Of a stretch of 64,000 nucleotides of DNA, positions 2-19,865 are shown in pieces. Positions within the stretch are counted from its first letter, which is position 1, and each line of letters begins with the position of its first letter. This DNA comes from an uncultured virus (IMG/VR IMGVR_UViG_2061766007_000872) (taxonomy: Duplodnaviria > Heunggongvirae > Uroviricota > Caudoviricetes). Under the pieces are notes generated by a model that had not been told where the DNA came from, searched no databases, and saw only the letters and a list, made by a program, of their open reading frames with translations. The translations under genes were made by a program, and so were the position numbers. Where the stretch lies: the IMG/VR virus record IMGVR_UViG_2061766007_000872; one strand, given 5' to 3'.

Positions 2-3000
2 ACTGAAAATAGTGAAAATGATGAATCACTATTTTATGATTTCTTTAGAGATTGTAAATATAATTCATTCTCAAAATTAAGTCAATGGAATAGTATATAT
101 GAAGATATTTTTGGTGAAGATTATGATGAAGAAGATGAGTTATATTCGTTCAGTGAGTGGTGTAGACAAATTGTATTGAGAGATTATTTAGAGTCTAACG
201 GCTATGATGGAATTTATTATTCAGATGAAGATGGCACTGAACAATATCAAATTTGGAATTTAGATGCACTTAAATCGCATAGTGGTGAGATAGAATCTCT
301 AGATGAAGAAAAAGCAATCACATGGGGTGACTTAGATGTTGCAAAGAAAACAGATACTAGAAGAATGATGAGTGGTAGAGGTACTGGTCATTTTGGTACT
401 GGTTTCTATTTTGTTGGAAAAGAAGGACCTTATGGCTTAGATAAAAATAACAACATTAAAGGTTATGACTATGAACCAAGTAGACCTATCTATGAAATTG
501 ATTTAGATAAATACAATCTCTATAAACCAAAAGATAATGATAGTGCTTATAGATTACATGATGCTATGGCTAGTATTAACAACTACTATAGTCCAGATAT
601 GAACAAATTCTTATTCTCTAACATTGATGCAGATGCACTTATGAATAGTTTTTATGATGCAGTTGCAAATCTAGATGAAGATGTTGAGGATGATGATTTT
701 GATGATTTAGATTTTGACTTTGATGATGTTGAAGACACAGAAGAAGATGATGTAGAAAAAGATTCAACTAAAGACAATTCAAAATATATTGATGTTGCAA
801 AATCATGGATTGAGAATAATGGCTTAACTGATTGGATAAATACTGGTTATGATGACTTAGACACCTGGCTAGATAAAAATAAAAACAAATTAGGTTTAAT
901 TGAAAGAGGTGTTGAAGATGCAATTGACAACAGAGATAAATATTTAGGCTATGTTGAATATGCTATTGATGTATTATGTAAAGCATTTAATACTGATAGA
1001 AATACATTAATGACAATGTGTAAAGCATTCTATAACATGAAGAGTGATGATACAATCTCAACACTATTATTTAAAGAATTTGGATATGAAGGTGTTGATG
1101 TTACACACTTAAATCATGATGCTCAAGGTCTTAGTGGTCTTGATAACTTTGGATATGGTACAGTTATCTATGACTTAAAGCCTGGTACATTTAAGAAGAT
1201 AGTTGAACCTAGAAGAGGTGGAAGTATACATGCAAAAGCAGGTGAATCTTTAGATGAAGAAGTCAAAGATAATGTTTTAGATGCTTTAGATAAAGAATTT
1301 GGACAAGAAGAACTTTATATGTGGTCAACTTATATTCTTCCTAATGGACATTTCTTGAATCCAGATAAAGGTAATCTTGAAGACCCTCAATATGAACATT
1401 GTGATTTTGAAGATTGGGCTTATCAAAATGGTTACAACACTCAAGATATTTATGATAATTGTATCAAGATGAATGTTACTTATCCATATTTAAGTATGCC
1501 AGATAAAGCAAGACCTACACAAGGACAATTTAATGCTGTTAGAAAAATATTAAATAGAAAAGATTTATTTGAACCAGAAGGTAGTTTTTATTGGTATGAT
1601 ATCTTTCCAAAAGAAAAGGTAGATAGCAAAGGTGAAAATCTTCTAGCAGTCTATACGCCTAAAGGTGATGAGTTATTTGATTTAGATGTTAGTGATGCTG
1701 ATGATATCATTAGAGCAATTAATCAAGCATATGTTAGAGGCTCTTTCTTAGGTGAAGAATTAGATGAAGATATTGATGACAAGTTACAAAGATGGCAAAA
1801 TGGTCTTGAACCTTTTGAAAATGTTTTTGATAAAGATGATATAGAGTATTTCAATAAAAATTTACAAACAACTACAACTGCTCTCTATAGATGTCAAATG
1901 AAAAAAGATACACCTAATTTAAAAGTTGGTGATGTCTTAGATTTTGATAGATATAGAAGTTTTAGTAAAACTGAAGCAGGTTTCTATGATGTCATGTTTA
2001 TGTGGGATGATTCATCTTTTGAAGATGATGTTGTTTGTTTTAAAACTGAAGGTGAAGTAAAATATTTTGACACAAAAAATAAATTCACAAAAGATATTCA
2101 TGCTGATGATTATGAATTTGGTGATTCTTTAGATACACAAGAAGAAGTATTTGTTAAAGGTAAATTTAAAATCATTAGAGAAGAAGAGGTGTATGATGAC
2201 TATATTGAGGTGTATCATAAGTTATTTGTAATTAAATACATTGATGATAAAGACTTAAATGAATACTTTGATACAGTAGAGGATAGTGGAGAAAAATATC
2301 GTAACTATGAAGTTTTAGATAGTGCTCCTATCTTTGTTACAGACGAAGTATACAAAATTAAAAATATGCTTGAGAATGATAACACTCCTTATAGAATTTT
2401 ATACTTGAATAAACAAAGATGTTATCTTATTCAAAATGCATTAGGAAATAAGACTCATTACGATATGTTTAAAACAGCATCACAAGAATTATTCATATCA
2501 GAGGATGACTACTTTGATGATGAGGACTATTTTGTCTTTATTCCAAAAGACTTTAATGGAAAATTAAGATATCATACAAGTTTGGGTGAGGATAACTATG
2601 ATGAATGCAGAGTTTATCCTTACGGCATTGTTTTTGTTAGAGATTCATATGCATATAATAACAAGTTTATCCAAGCACTAGGAGAACCAGAAAGAGAATT
2701 GTATTATGACCCACTAAGTGAAAAAGTAACAATAGTTAAAGGAAATACAGAAAAAGTTGTAGATGTTGAGGATGATTTAGGTGATGAACCAAATAATGCA
2801 CTTACATATGATGTTGATTCCAATGAATCTAAAGCAGACTTACCTGAGGATGTTACTATTAGAATAGTTCATGACCTAAATTTAACATATGATGAGTTTA
2901 AAACAATGGATAATGAAAATGTTTTTAATATTATTAAAGAGTTTTTACATTCTTTGTATAATTCAACTCCTAAAAACTTTGATTGGGGAAATAGTCCAAC

Positions 3001-3034
3001 AACAATTTTTGTTAGAGATATAGAGTGGGAATAG
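2..3034 (+). CDS. Large acidic multi-module protein (5'-truncated), putative internal head polyprotein with ADP-ribosyltransferase-like modules
   Basis: Frame is open from nt 2, so the TTG at 176 is not the true start. Contains GYDGI..E.QIW and GTGFYF...GYEGV segments, an LYR...SFS...QEE (R-S-E) ART signature, and ESLDEE linkers at 293 and 1244. Confidence 0.7.
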   Translation, partial: TENSENDESLFYDFFRDCKYNSFSKLSQWNSIYEDIFGEDYDEEDELYSFSEWCRQIVLRDYLESNGYDGIYYSDEDGTEQYQIWNLDALKSHSGEIESLDEEKAITWGDLDVAKKTDTRRMMSGRGTGHFGTGFYFVGKEGPYGLDKNNNIKGYDYEPSRPIYEIDLDKYNLYKPKDNDSAYRLHDAMASINNYYSPDMNKFLFSNIDADALMNSFYDAVANLDEDVEDDDFDDLDFDFDDVEDTEEDDVEKDSTKDNSKYIDVAKSWIENNGLTDWINTGYDDLDTWLDKNKNKLGLIERGVEDAIDNRDKYLGYVEYAIDVLCKAFNTDRNTLMTMCKAFYNMKSDDTISTLLFKEFGYEGVDVTHLNHDAQGLSGLDNFGYGTVIYDLKPGTFKKIVEPRRGGSIHAKAGESLDEEVKDNVLDALDKEFGQEELYMWSTYILPNGHFLNPDKGNLEDPQYEHCDFEDWAYQNGYNTQDIYDNCIKMNVTYPYLSMPDKARPTQGQFNAVRKILNRKDLFEPEGSFYWYDIFPKEKVDSKGENLLAVYTPKGDELFDLDVSDADDIIRAINQAYVRGSFLGEELDEDIDDKLQRWQNGLEPFENVFDKDDIEYFNKNLQTTTTALYRCQMKKDTPNLKVGDVLDFDRYRSFSKTEAGFYDVMFMWDDSSFEDDVVCFKTEGEVKYFDTKNKFTKDIHADDYEFGDSLDTQEEVFVKGKFKIIREEEVYDDYIEVYHKLFVIKYIDDKDLNEYFDTVEDSGEKYRNYEVLDSAPIFVTDEVYKIKNMLENDNTPYRILYLNKQRCYLIQNALGNKTHYDMFKTASQELFISEDDYFDDEDYFVFIPKDFNGKLRYHTSLGEDNYDECRVYPYGIVFVRDSYAYNNKFIQALGEPERELYYDPLSEKVTIVKGNTEKVVDVEDDLGDEPNNALTYDVDSNESKADLPEDVTIRIVHDLNLTYDEFKTMDNENVFNIIKEFLHSLYNSTPKNFDWGNSPTTIFVRDIEWE

Positions 3035-3051
3035 TGCTAAATTTTAAGATA
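3035..3051 (+). promoter_or_regulatory. TGCTAAATT motif, putative phage late promoter
   Basis: TGCTAAATTTTAAGATA, intergenic, just upstream of ATG 3062; one of 11 copies. Confidence 0.7.
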
Positions 3052-3061
3052 GAGAGAATTT

Positions 3062-6000
3062 ATGAGAACTAAAATTTATGAAGAATCAGATTACAATGTG
3101 ATGCTTAAAACTTTAGAAGAATTAACTCAAGGCTATGATTCTGAAGGAAATAAAGTTGCTGCGTATTTTGATGTTCATGAGTTAATGGATAATTTCGGCA
3201 TCACAATGGAAGAGGCAATTGACATTGCAGAGAATAATGGATATAATGTATTTAGGTTACCAGGTGGTGATAACTTAGTTAATCAAGTAGTTATTGCACA
3301 TGGTGATTTATCTTATGGTGATATAGTCAAAGAAGAAGAATCTGAGATTGAAGTTGATGATTCAGTTGATGCGGAGGATAGCAACATGCATAAACAAAGA
3401 CATGAAGATTTAAAAGAAGAAGTTGATGTTTCAATAATTGGAAAACCAGTTAAATATAGAAATGAAGAATGCACAATCAAAGATGTAGTAGAAGAAGATG
3501 ATGACGCAGTTATAATTCTTTCTAATGGCAAACAACTCTTAGCAAGTATTTGTGTTGCTAGAGGAACTCTTACAAGTGATGATGCAGATGTCAATGCATT
3601 TTTAGATAAATTCAAAGATGAAGAAGAACCAGAAGTTGAACCTGAACCAGAGAAAGAACCAGAAAAAGCAGTTGATAGCAAAGATGCAGTAATTCAACAA
3701 GCATTAAACGATGCTAGAGAAGATTGGGAAGAATATAAAGAATCTTCTCCAATGTTTAAGATGGTTAAAAAAGCAAGAAAGACTGGTAAATATGATAATA
3801 TTCCTACAGCATATCCAGAACTATATGCTGATACATATTATAAAGAATTTGATAGACTTATACACTCAGTTGAAAGTAAACTTGCAAAGAATTATGCAGG
3901 TATTATTGAAAGAACATATCCAGGTGAAGTTGATGAGTTAATTTTTTGGTTAAGACAAGCAATTACAAATATTCATGTTACATCTGGTGATGCCACAATG
4001 GCAATTACTCAAGAAAGAGTTGACTTCTTTAATGATAGAGATGGAACAAATGCTACAATTAGCAGACAAAACAATAAAATCTTTAGTTCTTGGATTGCAG
4101 ATTTAACTCAAAAAGAAGACATACTTAAAGATATGCCTATTGAAGTTTTAGATTGGAAGATTGATAAGAATAATGGTAGAGCATTTGAAGAAGATGAATT
4201 AGGTTTAGTTTACAATAAAAACAATAATGAATTAGGTTCAAATGCAGTTGTTTTAGATTTACTTTATGAATATGACTTTAAGTTAGGTAAACAAAAAACA
4301 AATGAAGAACTTGAAGAAGGTCTTAATAGAGATGTTAGAATTGAATACAATGACTTAGAAGTTGAACTTGATACTGAAGATGGTTTAAGAACAAAAACAT
4401 TTCACAATGTATCCTATATTGCAGATAGATATGATGTCTTAGAAGCATTGGAAAGAATTACCGACATTGACATTGATGAATTAGATGAAAGACTTGACTA
4501 TTATGTTGAAAAGTATTATGAAGATTTGAAAGATGTGTTCTATGATGCTGCAGCAAAGGCACAAGCAGAAGACTATGAAGAAAATCCAGAGGTCTATGCT
4601 TATCAACCAAGTTATGAAGATGAATCATTAAATGAGGATGTTTCATATGATAAGAAATATCTAGGTGATTTTAATACAAAATATAAAGAAACATTAATTG
4701 ACCAATATAAAAATGATGATGCTTGGTTTGTTAAAGTTAATGGTTGGGATAAAGATGGCAACAAATACAAAAATCCTATAGATACAGCAACTACTTTTGA
4801 TAATGCTTATAAGGCATTTGTTGACTTTGATGCTTCAAATTGCTCTATGAGTTGTTTTGTTAATCTTGTATGTAGAGAAGAAGTAGATGAGGATGAAACT
4901 GATATAGATTACTCACGTATTGATAGAGTTGTAATGAAGAGATATATCTACAACGGTGTAGAGAAATTAGATGAAAGTCTTGATTTACATGATGAGGTCT
5001 TTAATCTCTTCAGTGGTGAGAGAAGTGACGAAGAAGTTGATGCATATATTAAAAACATTAAAGACACACACAACTTCAAGTCTGATAAAGAATGTTTAGA
5101 CTATATTAAAGATAATTTGAATGAAGAACTTGAAGAAGATGCAAATGATGAAGTTGTTGAAGAAACAAATGAATATAAAATTGTTAAGACAATTCAACAC
5201 AATTTCAAGACAGTAAATGGTGTTGCTAGAAAAGGTAAAGATAAAGTTATTTATCAAGTTTATTTTAGAACACAAGATTACAATCCAGCAGTTGGTAGAT
5301 GGATGAATAGAGGTTGGACAAATTCAACTTCTGAACATGACTCAATTGAATCTGCTAGAGCATATGTTAAAAAATATGGTAAAGAATTAAAAGAAGATGT
5401 AAAAGAAATTCAAGTTAGAGATAATGAGAATATAGAAAAAGATGCAGAAGAATGTCCTCTTCCTTTAGAAATGATTCCTAATGAAATGGGTATCAATCTT
5501 TCTAATGTTGAAAAAGTTAAATGGGATGAGCAAGAAGATGGTCAACTAAAGAAGATTGAAATTGACTTTAATCCTGCAGATGAGTTAGAAGAAGGTATTA
5601 TGGGCGTATCTGGTATTAATGATGCGACTGCAAATAAAGAATTATTGAAAATTCTTCCATCAGATTTAAGAGCAAAAGAAATACATCTTGACTTAGGCAA
5701 TCAAAATTGTATTTTTACTCCATTATCAATTAAACAAGCAACTGAAATACTTAAAAATAATGGTTGGATAAAACCTAGAGATATTTCTTCATTAAGAAAA
5801 CAAGAATATGATGTAGGTGACAAATATAGATATAGTGTTTATACAAATGACCCTTATAGTACAACAGATATTTTATCTGAACCTAATTTATCAACAGTAC
5901 CTCAATATTGGTTTGATATTGTTCTAGGTCAAGATGATTTAGCATTCAATAGAAAGACAAACAAGCCTGCTACAAACATTACTATTTTAGGTTGGGGTGA

Positions 6001-7100
6001 GAATAAAAAACAAGAGTCTATAGAAGAAGATATTGAGAAACATGATACATTAAATCAAAAACTCTTTGATGGTGAAGAATTAAAACCTGAAATTAAAGAG
6101 AAGATTGAACAAATTGCTTATCAGTTTGTCAATGAATTAAATGAAGATGGCATTAGATTCACACTTAAAGATATTGTCTTATTAGGCAGTAATGTTTCTT
6201 ATAACTATACAAAAGATAGTGACTTAGACATCCACTTAATTGCAGATTCAAGTGGCTTAGAATGTCCAGACAACTTATATCCACTTCTTTATAGTGCATA
6301 TAGAAGTATGTTCAACAAGAACTATGACATCAAGATTAAAGGTATTCCAGCAGAAATCTATGTTGAAATGGATGAACCAGTTGCAAAGAGTAACGGCATC
6401 TATTCTTTAAATAATGGTTGGTTAAAGAAACCTGAACAAAGAGATATTCCAGACTTAGATGAAGAAGCATTTGATAAACTCTTCAATGAGTGGGAAGATA
6501 AATACTTTGAATTAATGGAAAAAGATGCTACAAGTGAAGATATAGAAAACTTCATTGAAGACTTATATGATTTAAGAAAAGAATCAATAGCAACAGAAGG
6601 TGAATATGGCCTTGGTAATCTAGTCTTCAAAGAATTTAGAAATATTGGTTACTTAGATGGCTTAAAAGAATTAAGAAAAGAGAAGAAAGGTAAAGAACTT
6701 TCTCTTGAACAATTAGAAGAAGATGCTAAGGAATCAAAGTTCTATGATACATTAGATACTGGTGCTACATTTGATTTAAATACTCTTNNNNNNNNNNNNN
6801 GTATATATTGTTCCTGTTGACTCTAAGAATTGGGATGATGAAAAACCTACATTAGAAGAATTTAATAAAGAGTTTTATAAATTTGTAAATGCTTATAGAG
6901 GAAAGAATGATAGAAAGTATGTCATAGGCACATATCATAATGAAGATACTGGTAGATATTCTATTGATATCAGTATTATTTTACCTGATAATGATGATAC
7001 AGCATTTGAAATTATAGATGACACTCAAGAAGAATTAGGACATCTTGATTCAGAAGGTAACTATGAAGATGTTAAGAATCCTAAATACAAAGCAAAGTAA
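3062..7100 (+). CDS. Large acidic multi-module protein with a pol-beta-family nucleotidyltransferase module
   Basis: ORF 3062..6820 resumes after the N-gap (6788-6800) as VYIVPVDSKNW...KYKAK* ending at 7100. Contains LLGSNVSYNYTKDSDLDIH (GS...DxD) and many LxE linkers. Confidence 0.7.
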
Positions 7101-7104
7101 TTCT

Positions 7105-7121
7105 TGCTAAATTAAATGATA
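7105..7121 (+). promoter_or_regulatory. TGCTAAATT motif, putative late promoter
   Basis: TGCTAAATTAAATGATA, intergenic. Confidence 0.7.
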
Positions 7122-7156
7122 AAGTATATAATTTTGTATAAACGGAGAAATTTAAT

Positions 7157-7983
7157 ATGAATGATATTAAAGAACTTGCAAAATGGCTAAAAGATGAAGT
7201 TGAATTCCTCAAAGCAAATCAAGATTATGTTGGTGGCTGGTATGACTTGGGTAATGGTCTTGCCGCAACAGTTCTTTGGGAAGATGGTTGGGGAGATGAA
7301 GCAAGNNNNNNNNNNNNNNNNNNNNNNNNNATTGGGCATTATGTGCAGGTGTTATGGTAATTAATAAAGATGACACACCAGATGGTTGGTTTATGCCTTG
7401 GGATAGTAAAACTGGTGATTTACTTTGTGAAACTACTGGCATTACTCCTAATGAAGACTATGAAAAACTTGCTAGTTGGCTATTAGATGATTTCAATAGA
7501 CTTAAAGGTGCTGATATCAAATCAAACGGTGAAACAATTTTTGGTGACCCAGAAAGAGAACCAGAAGCACTGGTAGAAACATCTGTTGAAGTTGAGGAAG
7601 AATCTTGTGAGTCTTGTAATAAAGAAGACAAGAAACCTATAAAAGAAGAAAATGAAATCCATAATTCTCCATATAAAGATATTATTGCAGAATATTTTGA
7701 CTATAGCGGTGATATGGAATTCTTAGATATCGTTGCATCTTGTCTAGAAAGAGTTGAAGACTTTGAAGACGATGAAGATATCTATAGCGCAATAGATGAT
7801 GAATTAATTTATACATATGACCAGTGGAAAGTTCTAGAACACTATTGTACTCCACAAGAAGCAAATTGGGATAGTGCATATAGTGATTTCATGAGTGATA
7901 TTTTTGCTATTTGTTCTAGAATTGCTGGTATGAATAATAAAGAAGATGACTTAGAAGAACCTGAAGAAGGAGAAGAAGATTAA
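7157..7983 (+). CDS. Acidic hypothetical protein (one gene split by an N-gap)
   Basis: GGAG RBS before ATG 7157; ORFs 7157..7360 and 7354..7983 flank the gap at 7306-7330. Confidence 0.6.
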
Positions 7984-9485
7984 TGGATAAGAAAATTAAT
8001 GAAGAAGTCCAAGAAGAGGCTTATAAGATTGCTGACCATATTTTAGATGCAATTAAAGATAGAGACACAATCACTAAAGATGAGTTTGAAGAACAAATTG
8101 CATTAGCATGTAGAGAACTCTATGGAATTGATAATGTTTGGGAAACAATGGACCATGAAAAAGGTTTAGCGACAATTAATGATAAGCAATTTGATATGAG
8201 TGACTTAGATGCAGATATTAGAGGAATTCTTAGTTATAAAGGATGGGCTACTGATTTTAAAGATGGTGACTTAACAACTAAAGAAATTGAAAATGAATCT
8301 TTGAAAGAAGATGCAAATGAGCCTAAATTAGAAACATTTGAAGAAAAGATTGATTTCTTAGTTAAGGATGAAGACGAAGCAATTGCTGGCTATGACAAGA
8401 TTATTGCCATGTTAGGTGATGACAGTGCCAATGCCATTGAACAATTAACACATATTAAAGAAGAAGAAATTGCACATAAAGACTTCTTAGAAGTTCTTAA
8501 GAAAGACCCAAGTGCTATCTATAATCATGAAGATGAAGAAGAACATGATGAATCTTTAAAAGAAACTTTAGAATTTGATGCAATGGAAGACCTCAAAAGT
8601 GAAGTCTATCATGCTCTTTCAGAAATCTATGCTAAGTATGAACTAAAAGGTGCTACACTCAACGAGTTTGACTCCGCAGTTGATTTTGCAACTATTCATA
8701 TGAGAGATGAATTTGGTGAATCTTTAAAAGAAGATACTGAAGTTGAAGCAGAAGTTAAAGTTGAAGAGCCAAAAGAAGAAGAACCAGTTGAAGAACATCC
8801 AATTGAAACAACAGTAGAAGAAGTTAAAGAAATTGCTTCTGAAGTTGCAAATAAAGTTGTAGAACCAGTTTCTACTGAAGAAGAAGCAGATGAACAACAA
8901 GAAGCAATTGAAGAAATAGTTGATGAAGTTGTTGATGATAAATTCGGTGAAGATGATGACTTTGATGATGAAGATGAAAAGATTGTCAGAGACAATGATG
9001 AAGTCATTGATTTAGATGATATTGATGATGACTTCGGTTTTGATGAAGAATTAAAAGAAGATACAGTCAAGAAAGACAACAAATGGGTAAATAAAGGTAA
9101 AGAAGGTACTCACGGTGAATTCAAGACTAAGAAAGAAGCAGATGCTCAAAGAAGAGCCATGTTCGCTAATGGTTATCATGAAGAAGTTGAAGAAGACTTT
9201 GATGATGACTTTGGTGGTGGTAGTGATAAGTTTGTTCCAGGTGAAGCAGAACACTTTGGTGTTACAGTGAATTGGGATGACATGGATGATGTTGAAGAAG
9301 AAGATACTAAGATGTTTAAGAAAGTCATTAAGAGTACAGATGATGAAATCTTAGACAAACATTTTGGTAAAGATACACCTGAAAGAAAATTAGTTGGTGC
9401 TATTAAAAAAGACATTGATGAAGAAACACATGAAACAGGTCATATCAAAGCAAAGAAACCAATTGAATTAAGAGCAAGAAGATAA
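7983..9485 (+). CDS. Acidic multi-module protein with a ferritin-like (ExxH) half-domain; putative prohead core/internal protein
   Basis: ESLKE three times (8295, 8550, 8718); DEDEAIAGY...EEEIAH module. Confidence 0.65.
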   Translation: MDKKINEEVQEEAYKIADHILDAIKDRDTITKDEFEEQIALACRELYGIDNVWETMDHEKGLATINDKQFDMSDLDADIRGILSYKGWATDFKDGDLTTKEIENESLKEDANEPKLETFEEKIDFLVKDEDEAIAGYDKIIAMLGDDSANAIEQLTHIKEEEIAHKDFLEVLKKDPSAIYNHEDEEEHDESLKETLEFDAMEDLKSEVYHALSEIYAKYELKGATLNEFDSAVDFATIHMRDEFGESLKEDTEVEAEVKVEEPKEEEPVEEHPIETTVEEVKEIASEVANKVVEPVSTEEEADEQQEAIEEIVDEVVDDKFGEDDDFDDEDEKIVRDNDEVIDLDDIDDDFGFDEELKEDTVKKDNKWVNKGKEGTHGEFKTKKEADAQRRAMFANGYHEEVEEDFDDDFGGGSDKFVPGEAEHFGVTVNWDDMDDVEEEDTKMFKKVIKSTDDEILDKHFGKDTPERKLVGAIKKDIDEETHETGHIKAKKPIELRARR

Positions 9486-9492
9486 ACAATAC

Positions 9493-9544: not shown

Positions 9545-9550
9545 ACAAAA

Positions 9551-10541: not shown

Positions 10542-10682
10542 AGTTTCTAAATGTGTAAGACTAAATTATCGGCTATGTCTTTGAAGAAGCATGACCTTCT
10601 AATTAGCCGAGCATGCGATAGATTGAACACTAGGATAATATAGGACCTAGCATTTTTGTTAAAAAGAAAGGAAGAAGTAATT

Positions 10683-12014: not shown

Positions 12015-12017
12015 AAG

Positions 12018-12027
12018 TTGTATAATA
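12018..12027 (+). promoter_or_regulatory. TTGTATAATA promoter-like motif at the start of the large non-coding region
   Basis: The same motif precedes several replication genes. Confidence 0.5.
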
Positions 12028-12029
12028 TA

Positions 12030-13662
12030 TTAGCCAAAGCATGTAAATGTTAAAAGACCATGGGTTTATGCTTAGACGGTAAACCTCAATTCTGGTGGGC
12101 TATGTGAAATTGAAGCATATCGTTAAAGAAGTAGGACAAATAAACAAAACCTCTTAATGAAAAATAAAATGCTAAATTATATACAAAGAGGATACTGCCC
12201 AACCTCTTTAAAAACATGAGAAACGGTTTTATGAGGAGCCGTGCAACGAAAGTCTTCCATGTAAAGTGAATGCTTTACAACAAATCCAATTTTATTGGTC
12301 ATAAGTTAAATCTTATGCTTCCCACTACTTCACAGAACTATTAGGCATAAAATCCTAGCAAAGAATTGATAATGTAGATGGGATATTGTCTAGGGATATG
12401 TATTAAGCATGTTCCTTGATGTAAACAACACAGTAATGTGTGAAATTATCCTAATGTCATGAACATTAGGCATCAAGAGAAACTTCGGTTTCTCAAGTAT
12501 GATAGTTACATCTCTTGAAATATTGTCTAAGATGTACCTGCGAGGCAACTAAGATGATAACAAAGAAGATGTGATTATAAATCTAATAACTATGTAAACC
12601 TCACCGACTGGAGTAACATTGTATCCGTAGGGATAGTGCCAGAACAAGTATTAGTTATTAGACTGATGAGAGTTGAATAGGCCAAGATTAGCCTTGAGAA
12701 ATCATTGTCTATGACGGTAAGTCCCGCATAGGGAGCCATTTAATCTCACAAGAATAGTGAACCCAAGTTGGCAAATGAAGCCTCCATCGGTTCATGACCT
12801 ATGAAGTTTGTACATGATAGCAAATGCAAATGGAGGTTTTATGTGAGTTGGTGTGCTCATGCTATCTAGATGAAAAGAAACTTAATCTAAGTAGTTGAAG
12901 AAAAAGACATCTTTAAAACTCCTCACTAACTGCTGACCGACATGAGGCAACAGTATTCTAGATTATAGTGAGGATGTTTAAGTTCTCTAAGCCTAGTCAC
13001 CTAGCAAATGATTCATCTTGGAGATGATGATGCTATAAGACTCATTGTAGTAGTACTTAGTCTACAGGGCAATGTTCCACCACCTGGTACTTGAAATTCA
13101 ATTTAGAATCTTCAAGTGATACGCTTAGCATCTATGATATTGGCCATATCAAATGAAATAAGACTAAGACAAAGCCGGGGAATTCCAGGAACTTACTCCT
13201 GCAAGGAGGGGTTGAGCCCTCCCTTAATTGATATTGACTCTTAATTGAGTTGATATAGATTACCTCCTTTCTATGACAAAGAGTGTAAACTCTAGTCTAG
13301 GTTGACTACTTACCTGAAGCAATCTATCAAAGAAGTGGAAGATGGTAACAACAGAAACTCTTGTAAACAGAAACCATCTATGTTGGTGAAACACACTCAA
13401 ACTTATAGATTTATTCTATATCTATAAGTCATACGACGGTAATATGCTCGTCTGAAATGGCCGGTATATTGCTCTCGTGTTAGAACATCATGCTACCCTT
13501 GTGGTTGAAGAGAATGAAGATGGTTATCCATCAGGTAGTGAGAATCATAAATCCTAGTATAAGTGATAACTACATGAATGTTCATCATTCCGTGAAAAGA
13601 ATACAAACACGGTAGACACACTAATGAAAATAGCATATACTTGATTATGTGCTTAAACATGC
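12030..13662 (+). ncRNA. Candidate very large structured ncRNA or ncRNA cluster (~1.6 kb)
   Basis: No ORF of 60 aa or more on either strand. Dense hairpins, including a C(UUCG)G loop at 12477-12494, GCAA/GUAA tetraloops and nested long-range stems. Bounded by promoter motifs and a terminator. Confidence 0.7.
12170..12186 (+). promoter_or_regulatory. TGCTAAATT motif inside the non-coding region
   Basis: TGCTAAATTATATACAA. Confidence 0.5.
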
Positions 13663-13697
13663 AAAACACCTAGAGACTTATCTAGGTGTTTTCTTTT
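13663..13697 (+). terminator. Intrinsic terminator
   Basis: AAAACACCTAGA-GACTTA-TCTAGGTGTTTT followed by CTTTT. Confidence 0.85.
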
Positions 13698-13733
13698 GCA
13701 AAAATGTTAAAAATTATACAATTTTTATATAAT

Positions 13734-13750
13734 TGCTAAATTTAATGATA
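13734..13750 (+). promoter_or_regulatory. TGCTAAATT motif, putative late promoter
   Basis: TGCTAAATTTAATGATA. Confidence 0.75.
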
Positions 13751-13778
13751 AAGTTTATTTTTACATGGAGAGTAATAG

Positions 13779-14525
13779 ATGACACTTCAAGAATATGTAG
13801 ATAATATCAAACTTGAGTTAACTGGTGGTGTTCTTGAGTTAGAAGTTGATGATGATACAATTGGCAAATATGTCATGCAAGCACTTAGAGAAATTCAAAG
13901 ATATATTGATGAAACTAAGTTAGTGCAAGTTCCATTTTCATCTTGCATTGATTTAGGAGAATATGTTGATGAACAAGGTAAGAAGCATGAATTTAAGCAT
14001 AGTTCAATAACAAATGTTTATAGATGTGAAGCAGTTGGTGACCAGGGCAAAGGTAATGGCGGAATTAGTAGTGTTGACCCAGCCTATGCTCAATTTTGGT
14101 TAGCATCAAGTAATGGTAGTTCAATGTATAATTTAAATAGTTGGTTAATGAACTATATGACATATAACACATTACTTCAATTGAGAAATACTACTTCTAC
14201 AGACTTAGCATTTAGAGAAGATAAACATCAAAATAAACTCTATATCAATGTCTCTGCTGGTAGACCAGATTATATTGCAATTGAGTATGTACCAATCTTT
14301 GAAGATGTTGATGACATTAAGAGTGATTATTGGAAAGAAATTCTATATAGACTTGCATTAGCAATTACTAAAATGGGTTTAGGTAGAATTAGAACATGGG
14401 CAAAACAAAATAATGCTTTGTATACAGTTGATGGAGATACAATACTTGAAGAAGGTAGAAATGAAAGAACAGAAATTGAACAAAGATTAATACAAAATAG
14501 TAATTTATTCTATCCAGTTGATTAA
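13779..14525 (+). CDS. Head completion/neck protein (T4 gp13-like)
   Basis: N-terminal IKLELTGGVLELEVDDDTI and C-terminal LALAITKMGLGRIR...VDGDTILEEG pattern; position before tail genes. Confidence 0.7.
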   Translation: MTLQEYVDNIKLELTGGVLELEVDDDTIGKYVMQALREIQRYIDETKLVQVPFSSCIDLGEYVDEQGKKHEFKHSSITNVYRCEAVGDQGKGNGGISSVDPAYAQFWLASSNGSSMYNLNSWLMNYMTYNTLLQLRNTTSTDLAFREDKHQNKLYINVSAGRPDYIAIEYVPIFEDVDDIKSDYWKEILYRLALAITKMGLGRIRTWAKQNNALYTVDGDTILEEGRNERTEIEQRLIQNSNLFYPVD

Positions 14526-14535
14526 GGAGATACAA

Positions 14536-17500
14536 ATGGGAAAATTAGAAACATTAAGAGCAGAATTAGAAAAAGCAAGAGAAAAACTTCATGCTAGAGG
14601 ATTTGAATATGATGGTAAAGCAAATGGCTATAAGGAATTAATGGCCGCAAAACCATTTGAAATTGCATATCAAGATGTTATTGAAAAGATTTGGCCAGAT
14701 AATGCTTGGTGGGAAGTCACACATTATTGGGATATTTTTGATGCAATGATGGGTGGTTTCAGTGATGAAGAAGTCATTGATGAAATTTGTAAGCATGTCG
14801 GTAAAGATTATCTTGATGAAGAAGTTGAATCAAATGTTGGAGGCGCATATGTTGAAAAAGGTCACAACATGAGAGAATACATTGAAAAGTTTGGTGATGC
14901 TTATGATAATGGCGAACTTTGGGATTTCTCAAAAGAAGATTTTGAAAATGGTGCAATAGATGTTAATCCATACATTATCTATTGGTATATGCAAGATTTA
15001 GATGGTGAGTGGAGATATTTTGAAACTAATCTTGAACCTAAGAAAGAATGTGTTAAAGAAGAAAAAAAGTTAGATGAAGGTACTTCTAATTTTGGTGCAG
15101 GTCCAGAGCATTTTCCATTATTAGTTTTCTATACTTATGATGAATATTTATATAATTTGACACATGCTCAAGATTATCCTCAAGAAGAACAATTTGAGGA
15201 TGAAGATGGCAAAATAGATTGGGATGCATTTGAAAATGCTAAAGAAGAATTTGAATTAAAATATGATGAATCAAATAAAATTTGTGTTTTAGATGAAGAT
15301 ACACAAGAAAGATTAGAGAATAAACTCTATGACTTTAATGAAGAATCTAAGAGAATAGCATGGGATGCAGATGTTGTTGATGGTGAACAACAATATGGCA
15401 ATAATCTTAGTCTTGAAGATGTTAAAGTAAATATTGAACCTGGTTATTATAGTGCAGCATATATTGATGTTGAGCATGAAGACTATCTTGAAGATTTAGA
15501 TGAAGATTTCAAAGCAAAACAATTTGAAAGATTTACTAAGTTATTCCAAGAATTAAAATCTGAATTTGGTTTAACTGAATTATCTGCTGGTCCTATGGCT
15601 TCTAATGGTGAAAGAGGTTACTCTATTGTCAATAATGAATCTTTAGACGAATCAAATAAAAAATATGCTTTAGTTGTTAATGGTGAGTGGTACTCAACTT
15701 ATGATTCATATGAAAAAGCACAAAAGGCACAAGAAAGATTCTTAGATGCAATTGATAATGATGAAGATGCTCAAAAAGAATATGGTGCTTTTGCAAATGT
15801 TGAAATTAAAGAAGTTAATGAGTCTTTAAATGAATCTATGGAAAGTGAAGTCACTAAATGGTGGAAAGATGTTGAAGATGCCAATAAAGAAATGAAATGG
15901 GATTTCAAGATTGACAATGGCGACTATAGCGATGTAGAAGCAATGCACGCAGCAATGTTTGACATGCTAGATGACCTTAAAGAAAAAGGTGCTAGTGACT
16001 TATTCAATAGAGGTAAAAAGATTTATAATAAATATGCTATTAGTAAATATAATGAAGAATTAAAAGAATCTTGCAGTGATAAAGAACTAGTTGATAAATT
16101 AGTTGCATTTGGTACTTGTGCTGATGAAAAAGAAGCAAAAGAAAGAGTTGCTAAAATGTCTAAAGAAGATAAAGAAAAAATGTGTAAATCTCTTTCCGCT
16201 CAAGCAAAAGACCATTTATTAAATGATTCTTTAAATGAGTCTGATGAGGTTGCAAGAGTAGAATATTGTGTTATGGATAAAGATAATAACAATATTGAAT
16301 GTTTTGATAATACTGATGATGCCATTGCTTTTGCTAAAGAGCATGAAGGTATTAGAGTTCTTGAAGTTCAATATGGACCAAAAGATGAAAACGGTGATGA
16401 AGAAGAATTAGGTTGTGAAGAAGTTTGGTCTATTAGAGAATCTTTAAAAGAAGANNNNNNNNNNNNNNNNNNNNNNNNNNNNNNNNNNNNNNNNNACAGG
16501 TGACCCAGCCAAAGATGCTGCCTTCTTTAATCATGCTATGGGCAGTGATAAAGGTGATGTCAGTGTTGAAAAATCTTCAGTTAGTTTAGGTGAAGGTTAT
16601 GTTGGACAAGATGTTGAAGACTTCTTAGATGTCATTAGTGACAATGAAGCAATTGAAACATTAGTTATCTCTAACATTGATGCAGATGATTATACAGAAG
16701 CATTCAAAGGTAAATATGAAGATTTAGATAGTAACTTACTACATTGTGAATATGCAGACTTTGATGTTGGTGGTGATATTTTAGTTGTCAATGTTAAAAC
16801 TGAATCAGATGATTGGAATGATTTATACTATGATGACTTGGAATCACTCTTAGAAGACTACAACGGCGATGAAATTAGAATTATAGATGTAGATACTGGT
16901 GAAACACTTTTTGAAGGTGATAAAGAAGATATTGATGATGAAGTTAAGGGATTAACTTTCTGGTCAATTGATACACCTAAGTATCTATGTGTTAATGCTC
17001 ATTGTGGTGAGATTGAAGACCTTGAACCAGATTTCGGTGAAGATGATGAATTAAAGATTGAATACTGGTATGATGAAGAATCTAGAGACCAAGGTTTAGG
17101 TGATATGTACTTTGGTGAAATTGAAGATGAAGAAGACGGCAAAAGAATTGTCAGAAAGATGATTGATAGAGATGGCTTTGCTTCAGCAGAACTTCAAAGA
17201 GGTGATACAGTTCTCTTTGGCTATGATGGTGAATCAACATGGGGAGAACTTGCAGAATCTTTAGATGAAGCATCTCATAGAGGTATGGATTATTATGAAT
17301 ATAAAGGTTGTCATGTTAGAGAAACACCTTCTTGCTTTGTTGCAACTGATGAACATGGCACAACTTTAGGTGACTCTAAAACAAAAGCCGGTGCAGAAGG
17401 AATCATTGATGACCATGTTGCTAAGAAAGATGAAAAGTTATCTAAGAAGCAAATAGATAAGAATGTCAAGAGAAATCTTGCTTATCTTAAGTGGCAAGGT

Positions 17501-17740
17501 GAGAGAGAATCAAAAAATAGAGATAACGAAAAGAAAGAAGAAGTTATGACAGAAGATAATGATGTCTATGCTTTACATCTTAAAGTTATAGATGCCAATA
17601 CAGGTAAGATTAATAAGATTGAAAGAATCTTTGTAGGTTCTAAGAAAGAATGTGATGTGAAGAAAAAACAACTTGAAGATGCAAGTCCAGAAGATGCTAA
17701 TCACAACAAGAATGTCTACAAAGTGAGCAAAGTTAAATAA
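14536..17740 (+). CDS. Large acidic multi-module protein (probably one gene split by an N-gap)
   Basis: AAGGAG RBS before ATG 14536. The frame after the gap (16455-16495) is open upstream of 16538 (TGDPAKDAAFFNHAMG). Linkers ESLDES, ESLNES, ESLKE, ESLDEA. Confidence 0.6.
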
Positions 17741-17750
17741 GGAGAGTTAT

Positions 17751-19865
17751 ATGCAAGAAGTTAAAGGTATTACAGTTTTAGATGCATTTAAGGCCCTTGA
17801 TGATGTTGATGATGTAGTCATTCAAGATGAAGTTGAAAAAATAACATCAAAAAAGAAACTAAAAGAATCTCTTAAAGAAGATAGAGTTGAAACTATTGAC
17901 ATTTCTGGTAGAGATATGTATGACAAAGGTCAAGCATATTATTATGCTAGAACTGGTGACAAAGTTGATTTTAGAGGTAATAAGTACACAATTGTCACTG
18001 ATGAAAAAGGTGGTCATAAAATCGGCTATAGTGATACAATCTTATTAAAAGGTCCAAATGGAAAGACAGTTGAAGTTGCTAAGAAAGACTTTATTAAAGA
18101 TGCTACTTTACTTAAAGAAGAAGCAATTGAAGAATCTGGTGATGACTATTGGGTTTTAAGTGATGGCCAAAATCCAAAGAACTCAAATGTTTTCTCCAAG
18201 ATTGATGACTTAGATGCAATTATCTCTAAGTTAGAAGCATCTAAAGGTAAAGGTCATTGGGAATTATTACATTATATCAATGGAACACCAAAGAAAGTTT
18301 GGGATAGTGAAAATGGTAGAGTTGATGAAGACATGAATGATGATATCACCAATTATATCAATAAATTTAAAAATAATGAGGGTAAATATATTGATAGTGA
18401 AGTTTTAGGTGATGCAATTTCTGACATGAAAAAAGCAAAAACATTATCCTCTGCTATGGAGATTGCAAGTGCATATACAAATTTAAATTTCTATAGATTT
18501 AATGATAATGATGAGATTGTTGGAAGTGCAGGTATGCATCCTGACAAGACAAAAAGTGGAAGAGATAGTAAAAAAATGGTCTTCACTCAAGGCAATAGAG
18601 TATATAATTCAAAAATTGAGAGAGATGCTGATAAAATTTATTTTGATAAAAAATTAGCACAACCATTTATTGATAAAGCATTAAGTGAAGAATGTAATCT
18701 TAAAGAAGAACCAACTTATGGCTTAGAACCAGAATATGATTCAAGAAAATCATTCTATGGAAAAGCAAAAGTTGAAGAAAGACCAGATGGTACAAAGATT
18801 CTCTATTCTTACGGAACTCCAGTTTGTAAGATTAAAGGTGACAAAGCAACATTATTAAGAAAAGGTTACTTAGGTTGGGCATCTTCTCAAACAACTTTAA
18901 GACATGTTAAAGAATTCTTAAAACAACATGGCTTTGAAGCAGGTAGTATCAATGATTTAAGAAATAAATATCCAGTTGAACAAGCAACATATAATGAAGC
19001 ACTTACTTTAACTGAAGGTATTTTAGTTGATATTCTTGATAAAGAAGAAGTTGAAGAAGGTAAAAAGTTCATTGAAGAAGATGATGATGAACATATTGAA
19101 CAAGTGGTTGATGTTGATGCAAATACAGTTGAAGAATTAAAAGACTCTTATGTTGGTAATGTCTTATTAAGATGTCCAGTTTGTAAAACACCAATCTTCA
19201 AGAAACCAGAATTATTAGAAAAACAAGAAGATACAGAAATCTATAATGTTGGTGAAACATGTCCACATTGTGGCTCTAAAGATGGTTTTGAATTAGTTGG
19301 TCAAATTGCAACTATGGATGTTCAACAACCAGAACCAGTTCCAACAACTGGTAAAGATGAAGTTGAATCAACAAGTTCTACACTTGAAGATAAAGTCACT
19401 GATAATGAAGTTGGTGATANNNNNNNNNNNNNNNNNNNNNAAAAGCCTGAAGAAGATAAAGAAGAAAATAAAAGACCATCAGTTATGGCAAAAGAATCTT
19501 TAGAACTTAAAGGTTTATCAGAAGATACATTTAATACATTAGTTAATAAATATCTTGAAGCAACATATAATAATGTTGAATGTTTCAATACAACAGAATG
19601 TGACTTAGAAGATAAGAATTTAATTGTTGAAGGTGTTATCAAATTCAAGAGCGGAAAAGAAAAACAAACAAAGTTTGTGTTAGAAAACAAAGTTGGTAAG
19701 AATCCAAATAAAATTAGATTTGTTGGAATGAATGAAACATTTAGCAAATCAAAAAGAACATTCAATTTAGTTTGCAGCAATGACAAAGGCAACTTAATGT
19801 GTGAAAGTTTATCCTATTGCTACAAAACAAAAGATAAAGATATTAAAGGTAAAGTTAAAAATTAA
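17751..19865 (+). CDS. Acidic multi-module protein with a Zn-ribbon; putative head internal protein
   Basis: ESLKED linker at 17865; CPVC...CPHC; RBS AGGAG. Confidence 0.65.
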   Translation: MQEVKGITVLDAFKALDDVDDVVIQDEVEKITSKKKLKESLKEDRVETIDISGRDMYDKGQAYYYARTGDKVDFRGNKYTIVTDEKGGHKIGYSDTILLKGPNGKTVEVAKKDFIKDATLLKEEAIEESGDDYWVLSDGQNPKNSNVFSKIDDLDAIISKLEASKGKGHWELLHYINGTPKKVWDSENGRVDEDMNDDITNYINKFKNNEGKYIDSEVLGDAISDMKKAKTLSSAMEIASAYTNLNFYRFNDNDEIVGSAGMHPDKTKSGRDSKKMVFTQGNRVYNSKIERDADKIYFDKKLAQPFIDKALSEECNLKEEPTYGLEPEYDSRKSFYGKAKVEERPDGTKILYSYGTPVCKIKGDKATLLRKGYLGWASSQTTLRHVKEFLKQHGFEAGSINDLRNKYPVEQATYNEALTLTEGILVDILDKEEVEEGKKFIEEDDDEHIEQVVDVDANTVEELKDSYVGNVLLRCPVCKTPIFKKPELLEKQEDTEIYNVGETCPHCGSKDGFELVGQIATMDVQQPEPVPTTGKDEVESTSSTLEDKVTDNEVGDXXXXXXXXKPEEDKEENKRPSVMAKESLELKGLSEDTFNTLVNKYLEATYNNVECFNTTECDLEDKNLIVEGVIKFKSGKEKQTKFVLENKVGKNPNKIRFVGMNETFSKSKRTFNLVCSNDKGNLMCESLSYCYKTKDKDIKGKVKN

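Follow-up and report, generated by a model that had tools for sequence, protein, structure and literature searches.

An ESLxE motif punctuates acidic multi-module proteins of an uncultured T4-superfamily myovirus: candidate head-packaged cargo polyproteins

In phage T4, Alt and the internal proteins IPI–III, which include an ADP-ribosyltransferase, are substrates of the prohead protease gp21 that are packaged into the head and delivered to the host by injection. They are cut after the Glu of (L/I)-x-E, with Alt being cut at ITE-6 and LTE-619 (PMC5694885), and each is a single protein that loses a short propeptide. Among the inner-body or ejection proteins of the giant phages phiKZ, 201phi2-1 and SPN3US, according to the accounts of gp175/gp245 processing in PMC5694885 and PMC10052503, many head proteins are likewise cleaved behind the Glu of a short consensus, in some cases more than once per protein, an example being phiKZ gp93, cut at SLE-13 (PMC5694885), and the protease gp175/gp245 self-cleaves where its catalytic domain ends on the C-terminal side. 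As described there, the giant phages use A/S/G-x-E, and what cutting removes is in most cases a long propeptide at the N terminus; a series of modules is not set free, and the lineage is another one.

The polyvalent proteins defined by Iyer et al. in 2017 also carry many unrelated domains per chain, are encoded beside virion genes and were predicted to be packaged and injected (PMC5512222). The word “linker” does not occur in the main text of that paper, and a punctuating inter-module motif was not found described there. The polyproteins of RNA viruses, an analogy already drawn by Iyer et al. (PMC5512222), are one product with repeated consensus sites that are cut by a viral protease, but the likeness to the locus described here is functional only, as they belong to another realm and use other proteases, and here the polyprotein would be cargo and not a replication or structural set.

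The window, i.e., the whole stretch of 64,000 nucleotides that was analysed (IMG/VR record IMGVR_UViG_2061766007_000872), spans the head-to-tail region of a novel T4-superfamily myovirus, which is uncultured and has a low GC content. No cultured member of the group was found. The nearest cultured capsid proteins, those of Bacillus SP-15, Listeria LIS04 and Bacillus HSE3, have 29–32% identity, and the cultured relative Streptococcus phage GXN1 contains ESLxE just once within 30 kb around the genes from capsid to sheath, so that no cultured relative examined has the arrays described below. About 14 kb of the window consists of genes for acidic “beads-on-a-string” proteins; in the relative G001 the acidic ORFs occupy ~23 kb (34321–57107) between the capsid and tail genes, a candidate cargo region that sets both apart from T4. 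In the window, these ORFs flank the head-tail adaptor gene (13779..14525; phrog_211, E 1.2e-10), which anchors synteny with 29 related loci, and the genes for sheath and tube follow downstream of them. The layout is that of an operon, running from the adaptor through three acidic ORFs to the ORFs upstream of the sheath with codon overlaps or gaps of a few bases, one junction being hidden by an N run (16455–16495). No S77 protease was found within the window, because the head genes lie upstream of base 1; this phage's protease, scaffold and capsid genes are all outside it.

All window features given here are on the + strand. The first acidic multi-module ORF, 2..3034 (1010 aa; D 13.5%, E 8.7%), has its 5′ end cut by the window, carries ESLDEE at aa 98 and aa 415 and EELDED at aa 585, and has parts whose homologous counterparts are found at various positions of a 2072-aa G001 ORF. 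It is followed by ORF 3062..6820 (1252 aa), with ESLNED at aa 521, looser sites at aa 415, 688, 840, 985 and 1216, and a C-terminal NTase-like module (aa 990–1220, nt 6029–6721) that matches phrog_36119 at E 7.4e-30. An initial sequence-only reading had extended this ORF to 7100; the open frame exists, but it stops in frame at 6820, and a second frame of 99 codons (6801..7097) begins in another frame directly after a 13-base N run (6788–6800). This frame, for which no homologue was found among the relatives compared, may be a continuation of the 3062 ORF or a separate gene, the junction being masked. Two further frames, 7157–7360 and 7354–7983, are split at an N run (7306–7330) and are one gene in relatives, where ORF 50761–51501 of G001 and ORF 4975–6504 of locus L153 match both. 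The acidic 500-aa ORF 7983..9485 (E 17.8%, D 14.2%), with ESLKE at aa 105, 190 and 246 and EELKE at aa 355, is made up of a module at the N terminus, the two-helix “ferritin-like” module (nt 8310–8564), the LEFDAMED module, an acidic stretch, a basic “KW” mini-module (nt 9060–9176) and a C-terminal module.

Beyond the adaptor, a single ORF had been read at 14536–17740, where there are two frames, 14518..16503 and 16538..17740, set apart by a 41-base N run that masks their junction. The former (661 aa; first ATG 14536), whose start overlaps the end of the adaptor gene, contains ESLDES at aa 374, ESLNES at aa 435, EELKES at aa 513, DSLNES at aa 570 and, just before the N run, ESLKE at aa 641, and the latter (400 aa), which is open back into the N run, contains ESLLED at aa 102 and ESLDEA at aa 240. 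Recoding was considered as a join for the split frames of the 3062 and 14536 ORFs, and TAG or TGA readthrough codes do not join them. The last ORF, 17751..19865 (704 aa; ESLKED at aa 39), has a zinc ribbon (aa 426–520) and a C-terminal domain (aa 584–704) that are kept in relatives, with a hypervariable middle, and its gene is mostly placed by relatives directly after the adaptor. The boundaries first given for the ORFs at 2–3034, 7983–9485 and 17751–19865 were correct.

The exact motif ESLxE is found at 12 sites of 15 nt each, starting at 293, 1244, 4622, 8295, 8550, 8718, 15637, 15820, 16438, 16841, 17255 and 17865 (span 293..17879). Eleven of these had been recognised from the outset, all of them present and in the frame of the large ORFs, and ESLLE at 16841 is the twelfth; the looser forms EELDED, EELEEG, ESIEED, EQLEED, EELKED and DSLNES were also recovered. 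L-x-E is contained in all 12 sites. The head-region frames (5,620 aa) hold all 12 copies, versus 0 in the 13,816 aa of the other + strand frames, and the initial impression that ESLxE is missing from the tail and replication ORFs agrees with this, as every copy lies before nt 17880 and none in the + frames of the other 44 kb. When the seven acidic ORFs (4,736 aa) were shuffled as whole proteins 300 times, the 12 observed copies compared with 0.26 on average and never more than 2, and shuffling within 30-aa blocks gave 0.27 on average and again at most 2. Because the shuffle counts are so low, the Glu content of these proteins is not the explanation for ESLxE. It is also the top abc.x.d pattern in the acidic ORFs (12 copies; runner-up 5), and none of the shuffles brought any pattern above 8 copies.

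Searching with the 500-aa ORF yielded 723 representative proteins at E <= 1e-3, and in the best 150 of these ESLxE occurs 265 times (shuffle mean 4.4, max 13), spread over 105 proteins. Upstream of one shared module, for which 94 distinct contexts were collected, P1 is Glu in 94/94 and P3 is L in 76, I in 13, A in 3 and V in 2 (L/I in 89/94), whereas P4 is Ser in only 42/94, being otherwise G, C, E, P or K, and P2 varies freely. Downstream of the same module, (L/I)-x-E follows within 9 aa in 60 of 95 contexts versus a background of 17%. As judged from these alignments, the core of the motif that is kept over hundreds of homologues is (L/I)-x-E, and it matches the specificity of the T4 enzyme; the window sites fit the T4 rule at the sequence level and carry an extra Glu-Ser prefix. 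The residues that follow the motif mostly differ among 102 distinct sites (P1′ = S 26, D 26, E 13, A 13), with flanks otherwise near background, and around 258 sites no extended linker composition was found, only the five post-motif residues being less hydrophobic. Some sites are located in homologous modules, e.g., ESL(K/T/N)EDTVKQ and ESLNESKQD. The commonest cassette is a basic peptide of ~45 residues (DTVKQ..KWVNKG..ANGYK) with the motif on both sides, and one homologue, P0101, has 8 motifs ahead of 8 different modules.

Across the window and 27 related loci, 76 ESLxE sites were compared, in which Ser is encoded by both codon families (TCN and AGY) and Leu by several codons, and ESLxE ranks first or close to first among the patterns listed for related loci, whose GC is 28–53%. 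Because both Ser codon families are used and the motif is kept by relatives of 29–53% GC, selection, as read from the codons, is on the protein and not on the DNA. In whole proteomes, ESLxE is the commonest abc.x.d pattern in G001 (20 copies) and G003 (14 copies); 16 of the 20 in G001 are in the acidic ORFs between the capsid and tail genes, and ESLxE-bearing acidic ORFs are also found away from the head genes (G001 156050–158785, G003 95569–101068).

In relatives, the counterparts of the window ORFs' modules are spread over different proteins and positions, and in one alignment (A5) modules are permuted and inserted exactly between two motif copies. The starts of internal homology pile up at 0 to +2 from ESLxE, and 27/176 start-breakpoints are within 12 aa of the motif (random mean 6.2%, max 12.5%). 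The idea that modules are exchangeable at the motif is thus supported by swaps, permutation and insertion exactly there, but 149/176 start-breakpoints lie elsewhere, more than 12 aa away. The ends of homology near ESLxE were not significantly enriched (17/184; random max 11.4%), and in the window alone there was no enrichment of the strict motif at HSP borders (0.04 versus 0.04). An AlphaFold model of the 500-aa ORF places 4/4 motifs in segments with pLDDT < 50 and a confident two-helix module exactly between two of them; in this low-confidence model, two motifs are placed at helix ends and not in coil.

The enzyme labels that had been attached to three modules fared unequally. The NTase and “ferritin-like” modules do lie between motifs, being flanked by ESIEED and EQLEED and by two ESLKE, respectively. 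Against Pfam NTP_transf_2, whose cut-off is 21 bits, the NTase-like module scores 16.7 bits (E 0.01), and one homologue reaches E 3.9e-5; the G-S ... D-x-D signature was sought and GSNVSYNYTKDSDLDIH is visible in the translation, and phrog_36119 is a family without function annotation. The “ferritin-like” module, which may resemble encapsulated ferritin, has no Pfam match at E <= 1, and its 7-sequence profile found nothing below E 0.25 among PDB sequences, with ferritin-like entries only at E 1.1–6; its D20, E21, E23, Y28, E52, E53 and H56 columns are invariant, on two predicted helices. The ART label (nt 308–1258) was not upheld, as neither Pfam (E <= 1) nor the PDB sequences gave a match, the sole lead being ART-PolyVal in a language-model Atlas (0.88, under the tool's own 0.9 mark). 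The hallmarks of polyvalent proteins are weak or partial here, namely LPD5 in ORF 3062..6820 (19.9 bits against a cut-off of 27; E 9e-4), LPD11 in 2/62 multi-motif homologues and the ART-PolyVal lead. Few of these 62 homologues match Pfam (9 families), and neither a peptidase family nor MuF was found in them or in the acidic ORFs of the window. In contrast, the release of polyvalent proteins was proposed to occur via embedded peptidase domains (PMC5512222); judged at the sequence level, the fixed inter-module motif fits a prohead protease acting in trans.

A gp21-like protease had been expected outside the window and was located in the genomes of relatives. Syntenic relatives encode a gp21-type protease of the T4 family S77, which in them is joined to a scaffold of the coiled-coil type, and their capsid protein is gp23-like. 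The protease was detected in 9/10 related records searched, in G001 via PF03420 (30.8 bits, above the cut-off) and in 8/9 others by homologue search, the miss being G004, which is 86% complete. The columns of T4 His85 and Ser140, presumably the catalytic residues, are invariant in four clade proteases aligned with T4 gp21. The capsid protein of the relatives matched 808 phage records, the T4-likes from residue 63, and has FLTE, YLNE, KMNE or FMAE near residue 53, ~27 residues before a conserved IPNLIA block; the T4 counterpart is FLTE65, the T4 capsid propeptide being 65 residues long (PMC5694885). The same motif had been anticipated at the capsid propeptide, where (L/M)-x-E is present in the relatives but the Glu-Ser prefix is absent. 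The scaffolds also have (L/M)-x-E, mostly without Glu-Ser, and P4 is Ser-rich only in G006 (7 SLxE). Because the prefix is absent at the capsid junction and in most scaffolds, the protease rule accounts for L-x-E and not for ESLxE.

On sequence and by analogy with T4, we lean, somewhat beyond even chances, towards late, head-packaged cargo polyproteins that would be cut at the motif by the phage's own gp21-type protease, and the acidic proteins as a whole are best explained, at a similar level of belief, as an extreme form of phage polyvalent proteins. They would be made along with the late structural genes and be incorporated into the prohead, where the gp21-type serine protease would cut after the Glu of (E)-(S)-L-x-E and free modules with a median of ~110 aa. 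Like T4 Alt and the internal proteins, the freed modules would be retained in the head and pass into the host together with the DNA. Whereas the T4 substrates lose a short propeptide, here there are up to 8 unrelated modules per chain with the site repeated between them, and cassettes could be gained, lost and reordered without upsetting processing because each module carries its own leading motif. In our judgement, proteins with 20–32% Asp plus Glu are unusual companions for packed DNA, which counts against packaging. A more far-reaching version, which we hold only tentatively and at somewhat less than even chances, is a plug-and-play cargo with a standard cleavable junction read by the capsid's maturation protease, so that any small protein appended to a head-targeted carrier could be packed, cut free and injected, with the ~45-residue basic peptide as a released DNA-associated head peptide. 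One genome would then carry dozens of early effectors in few genes, and relatives would reshuffle them freely.

The enzyme that cuts at the motif could instead be a Glu-specific endopeptidase of the host or some other protease of the phage, acting in the cytoplasm either ahead of packaging or once the proteins have been injected, or the proteins could be non-virion anti-defence polyproteins. The lack of Glu-Ser at the capsid and scaffold sites of relatives and the acidic ORFs away from the head genes in G001 and G003 would agree with this, and peptidase release after injection was proposed for polyvalent proteins by Iyer et al. (PMC5512222). The invariant positions are, however, exactly P3 L/I and P1 E of the T4-type rule, most such genes lie between capsid and tail genes, and the search for peptidase families in the acidic ORFs and the 62 homologues was negative, and we regard this explanation as quite improbable.

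It is also unlikely, to our mind, that the motif is an uncut, standard junction marking module starts, whether as a signature of helix starts, as a signal for docking or capsid targeting, or as a preferred place for cassettes to recombine. Homology begins exactly at the motif, which therefore travels with the downstream module; S-x-x-E is a classical helix capping box, two motifs abut helices in the predicted model, and the identical 17-nt copies at 8718 and 16438 could serve microhomology. Yet the supposed cap Ser is the variable residue, whereas the Leu/Ile, irrelevant to capping, is the one that is kept, and a pure junction need not retain the P1 Glu in every context. The codons, moreover, differ widely between genomes, so that there is no conserved DNA signal. 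Inflation of the counts by a few duplicated modules that start with ESLxE would suit the sites in homologous modules, but it is very improbable, as the post-motif residues differ among most of the 102 distinct sites, the 12 window sites precede unrelated sequences, and P0101-type proteins have a different module after each of their 8 motifs.

If the motif is a prohead-protease site, this would be a dsDNA phage lineage with true polyproteins as virion cargo, and polyvalent proteins and T4-type head processing would be joined by a simple sequence rule. The rule would predict mature termini for hundreds of proteins (one query gave 723 representative clusters at E <= 1e-3), open up a large pool of candidate injected effectors, few of them with a Pfam match, and explain the evolution of the arrays by cassette exchange. 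It would also serve as a model, taken from nature, for how foreign proteins could be loaded into phage heads and released. Even if the motif is uncut, the arrays would still show modular protein evolution with unusual clarity, the junction being conserved.

ESLxE occurs twelve times in the window, and all 12 copies lie in large acidic ORFs before nt 17880, with none in the other plus-strand frames (0 in the remaining 13,816 aa); the confinement to the head region seen in the sequence-only reading is thus borne out, as are the 11 positions it had counted, with one extra copy at 16841. There is no general excess of L-x-E in the cargo ORFs, i.e., plain L-x-E was found 68 times in the 5,620 aa of head-region frames versus 103 times in 13,816 aa elsewhere, and both ratios are near the expectation calculated from the Leu and Glu fractions. 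An (L/I)-x-E within the first 9 residues was present in 3/6 cargo ORFs as against 6/45 others, which are small numbers. The five large ORFs listed at the outset were recovered only in part: three are continuous, and two are broken in the available sequence, the ORF from 3062 by an in-frame stop at 6820 and the other by lying in two different frames (14518–16503 and 16538–17740). Both interruptions coincide with a run of N, and N runs at 6788–6800, 7306–7330 and 16455–16495 each sit exactly at an apparent ORF break; the pieces 7157–7360 and 7354–7983 match a single gene in relatives. Alternative genetic codes (TAG read as Gln; table 4) were rejected as the cause of the breaks, as they neither lengthened nor joined the ORFs.

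Megablast of the first 20 kb of the window found no match among cultured phages, single-protein scans of IMG/VR viral contigs found no close relative, and the window's sheath protein matched eight cultured-phage records at 22–25% identity. The 17-base coding form of ESLKED, used as a scan pattern, returned 119 loci, mostly by chance, of which one, L065, stands out: its acidic ORF of 1062 aa has ESLxE four times, and the two-helix module of the window has a clear homologue there. L065 lies on G001, a contig of 161 kb (91% complete) that shares synteny with the window. On G001, the terminase and portal genes come first, followed by those for the protease and the major capsid protein, then by a stretch of mostly acidic ORFs that includes the head–tail adaptor (34321–57107), and lastly by the tail genes; ESLxE occurs 16 times in that stretch and nowhere else in the first 80 kb. 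An alignment of the adaptors of the window and G001 recovered 29 related loci, the nearest being L153 with an adaptor identity of 71%. ESLxE ranked first or second among patterns in seven of these (L126, L129, L130, L133, L143, L144 and L153, with GC contents of 0.29–0.53) and is rare or absent in the remoter ones, and L139 has KSLxE seven times. ESLxE-bearing acidic ORFs were also observed outside the capsid-to-tail stretch, at 156050–158785 in G001 and at 95569–101068 and 125611–133717 in another relative, G003. No cultured member of the ESLxE clade was found; in Streptococcus phage GXN1, the one cultured relative studied in detail, the 30 kb surrounding the genes from capsid to sheath contain 1 ESLxE.

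To follow the family further, the 500-aa ORF (7983–9482) was used as a HMMER query against 1.84 billion representative proteins; 723 of them matched at E ≤ 1e-3, and for 363 of these E was ≤ 1e-10. Among the best 150 of the 723, 105 contain ESLxE, and no pattern of the shared module itself reaches more than half its frequency; one protein may hold up to 8 copies, ahead of 8 different modules, and the median spacing between motifs, with the wider pattern E[SG][LI]xE, is 108 aa. An (L/I)-x-E falls within the first 12 residues of 73/148 proteins of this global set versus about 17% of random 10-aa windows. The commonest module is basic and spans about 45 residues (DTVKQ..KWVNKG..ANGYK). Represented in the window at 9060–9176 (DTVKQ..KWVNKG..THG.FKTKKEADAQRKAMFANGYK), this mini-module is much more widespread than any other cassette, with 101 occurrences in the best 150 of the 723 and the motif on either side. 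Numbering the motif back from its last Glu (P1), the 94 distinct contexts upstream of the basic module have E at P1 in 94, L at P3 in 76 (I 13, A 3, V 2), E at P5 in 63 and S at P4 in 42 (otherwise G, C, E, P, K or N), with P2 unconstrained. Downstream of it, an (L/I)-x-E follows within 9 residues in 60/95 contexts versus 17% of random windows, and small stand-alone versions of the module carry a short leader with the same ending, e.g., M-K-L-Y-L-N-E before DTIKQ.

Explanations other than a processing site were also considered, one being that proteins so rich in Glu contain the motif by composition. The seven acidic ORFs of the window (4,736 aa) hold 12 ESLxE versus a mean of 0.26 and a maximum of 2 in 300 composition-keeping shuffles, and a mean of 0.27 when blocks of 30 residues were shuffled; among patterns of three plus one residues in these ORFs, ESLxE comes first with 12, the runner-up has 5, and no pattern exceeded 8 in any shuffle. 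In the best 150 of the 723 homologues (86,053 aa), 265 ESLxE were counted where shuffles gave 4.4 on average and 13 at most, and a composition artefact is thus ruled out for both sets. A repeat or recombination signal at the DNA level would tie the motif to particular codons; in fact, across 76 sites from the window and 27 related loci (L136 being omitted as a duplicate of L135), Glu is encoded by GAA and GAG, Ser by TCN and AGY, and Leu by TTA, TTG, CTA, CTT and CTC. The codons differ from genome to genome, so that a DNA signal was rejected as the main cause and selection must act on the protein. A helix capping box, S-x-x-E, would give the opposite conservation to the strict P3 and P1 and loose P4 seen before the basic module, whereas strict P3/P1 with loose P4/P2 is, at the level of sequence, what the published T4 rule would lead one to expect. 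In a logo of 102 distinct sites, where P5–P3 (E-S-L) and P1 (E) were fixed by the search pattern, P7 is hydrophobic (V, L or F in 43), P6 is D, N or E, P2 is K in 47, N in 14, T in 8 and D in 8, and P1′ is S in 26, D in 26, E in 13 and A in 13.

The expected exchange of modules at the motif was seen in an alignment of the 500-aa ORF (7983–9485) with its 12 nearest representatives, which shows both permutation and insertion between motif copies. The LEFDAMED module follows the two-helix module in the window and precedes it in the homologue P0001, lying between motif copies both times; P0002 has another module in its position, and in P0009–P0012 ...FGESLxE is separated from ...(E)SLKEDTVKK by additional modules, the two being a single site in the window. 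In a breakpoint test on 53 acidic clade proteins that carry the motif, 27/176 starts of internal homology lay within 12 aa of ESLxE (random mean 6.2%, maximum 12.5%), peaking sharply at 0 to +2, and the ends were not significantly enriched (17/184; random maximum 11.4%). In the window alone, strict ESLxE was not enriched at the borders of homologous segments (0.04 versus 0.04), and a looser pattern was (0.22 versus 0.05, from non-independent hits). The claim that domain boundaries coincide with the motif therefore stands for some cassette starts only, the majority of breakpoints lying away from it; judged from these homologies, ESLxE is the start mark of a subset of cassettes. An AlphaFold model of the 500-aa ORF, built from a 13-sequence alignment (mean pLDDT 55), places 4/4 motifs in segments with pLDDT < 50, which total 224/500 residues, two of the motifs at predicted helix ends, and the confident two-helix module (aa 119–174) exactly between two motifs. 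Around 258 motif sites there is no long linker composition, and hydrophobicity is lower only in the five residues after the motif (0.22 versus 0.31).

Profile searches found no capsid, portal, terminase or protease gene within the 64-kb window, the first ORF of which extends past its 5′ end; the gp21-like protease predicted to lie outside it is present in relatives. In G001 a Peptidase_S77 match (30.8 bits, E 1.5e-8, above the cut-off) lies within a 519-aa frame that is coiled-coil-like over its C-terminal two thirds, and homologues were found in 8/9 further related records, the exception being G004 (86% complete). The columns of H85 and S140 of T4 gp21, which we take to be the catalytic pair, are invariant in the aligned clade proteases, and where the protease domain ends and T4 has I-T-E-S, the alignment shows V-N-E-S, V-T-E-S, I-S-E-G and M-T-E-G in the clade, on the border to the scaffold-like part. 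The capsid protein of the relatives matched 808 phage records, the nearest being Bacillus SP-15 (32%), Listeria LIS04 (30%), Bacillus HSE3 (29%) and Streptococcus GXN1 (27%), and in the T4-like matches among those listed the alignment begins at query residue 55–63. The propeptide of T4 gp23 is given as 65 residues (PMC5694885), and the T4 sequence has F-L-T-E65 followed by A66. At a position near residue 53, which precedes a common IPNLIA block by about 27 residues, the clade capsid proteins have F-L-T-E, Y-L-N-E, K-M-N-E or F-M-A-E. The capsid propeptide of the relatives thus shares the hydrophobic-x-Glu element expected of it and lacks the Glu-Ser prefix, and the protease and capsid sites together fit T4-type maturation under a hydrophobic-x-Glu rule. 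The scaffold parts of ten relatives contain 8–13 L-x-E apiece with mixed P4, G006 alone being Ser-rich there (7 SLxE versus 0.42 expected); this was given little weight, since coiled-coil composition may explain much of the density. Two relatives have a broken major capsid gene, G002 (L156/L160; an insert of ~1.4 kb with a 344-aa ORF) and G006 (L158/L159; a ~140-base gap with a stop), and that of SP-15 is annotated as two pieces plus an endonuclease; introns or homing elements in this gene are likely.

Very little of the content of the modules is recognisable. The NTase-like module of the window matches phrog_36119 (E 7e-30), with NTP_transf_2 below the cut-off, and one module has a sub-threshold LPD5 match. 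The labels "ferritin-like" and "ART" were not confirmed: family searches did not bear out the former, the two-helix module nevertheless retaining Asp/Glu, Tyr and E-x-x-H on its two helices, and the latter has a single weak lead as its basis. Searches of PDB sequences with three window ORFs gave nothing useful. Pfam searches of 62 multi-motif representatives found only 9 families, among them LPD11 (2 proteins), NTP_transf_2 (1), a PemK-like toxin (1) and BspA-type LRR (3); P0032 (857 aa, seven ESLxE) has an N-terminal PemK/MazF-like toxin domain (PF02452, E 5.2e-4). The family of ORF 17751–19865 directly follows the adaptor in most relatives (L125–L153). Its N-terminal leader (..EAFK.L..L.E..F) and its helix-plus-sheet C-terminal domain are conserved; it also has a zinc ribbon and, in the middle, a hypervariable region into which foreign modules, Gly-rich membrane-like stretches among them, are taken up. 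An AlphaFold model of this post-adaptor protein (pLDDT 76) had no PDB match at E ≤ 0.001, and its only match among viral models was an uncharacterised homologue.

All large ORFs of the window are on the plus strand, and the GC content is ~30%. Profile searches identified the head–tail adaptor (13779–14525), tail sheath (22407–23663), tail tube (23679–24269), T4-type baseplate proteins (25309–33194) and, from ~40 kb, a replication module with an SNF2 helicase, anaerobic ribonucleotide reductase, DnaB-like helicase, primase and family A polymerase. The reductase, taken with the low GC content, points to a low-GC host that lives anaerobically. The same module has two TET-associated glycosyltransferases, tandem paralogues at 62299–63153 and 63155–64000 (PF20691, E 2e-36 and 2.4e-34), which suggest DNA with a glycosylated hydroxymethyl-pyrimidine, and a homologue of the Thoeris inhibitor Tad5 lies at 56705–57199 (PF25190, E 1.1e-12, 48.5 bits, exceeding the cut-off of 27). 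From the adaptor, the end of which is overlapped by the first acidic ORF downstream, up to the sheath gene, the ORFs overlap or follow one another with no more than ~140 bases between them, except at the masked junction 16455–16495. No terminator-like sites above chance were found between them, and sigma-70-type promoters and terminators in 1–20000 were at chance level only; this layout and the lack of terminators are compatible with co-expression alongside the late structural genes, the timing being presumed. Between the acidic ORFs and the adaptor lies a GC-richer island of 4.3 kb (9486–13778; 0.35–0.38 versus ~0.30) with a perfect TTGACA-18-TATAAT (9493–9522), a tRNA-Met (CAT; 9767–9841), which was the only Rfam match, and a collagen-repeat protein (10656–12014; Pfam Collagen E 5.6e-10, Big_3 E 1.2e-5). 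This protein has a signal peptide, together with a lipobox-like LTSCG, and downstream of its gene the island contains no ORF of at least 60 codons over ~1.76 kb (12015–13778). The syntenic position of G001 lacks such an insert.

Polyvalent proteins were described, and their packaging predicted, in the passages of Iyer et al. 2017 (PMC5512222) found by term search, where they are likened to RNA-virus polyproteins and embedded peptidases are proposed as the means of release; those passages describe no punctuating motif, the main text does not contain the word "linker", and "prohead protease" appears in the reference list only. Cleavage after Glu at short motifs is reported for T4, phiKZ and SPN3US in passages of Ali et al. 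2017 (PMC5694885) and of a 2023 study of SPN3US (PMC10052503), several cuts in one protein being among those documented. Full-text searches with ESLxE-type strings gave only unrelated old matches, and no paper describing such motif-punctuated arrays was found in the literature searched. The Glu-Ser prefix and the strong acidity of the cargo proteins are left unaccounted for by a prohead-protease reading. The recurring ESLxE is real, under selection at the protein level and typical of a large uncultured clade, and on balance we lean slightly towards its being a processing site for the T4-type prohead protease of that clade. In this reading the protease would process packaged polyvalent proteins at ESLxE; their packaging, cleavage and injection are all inferred.
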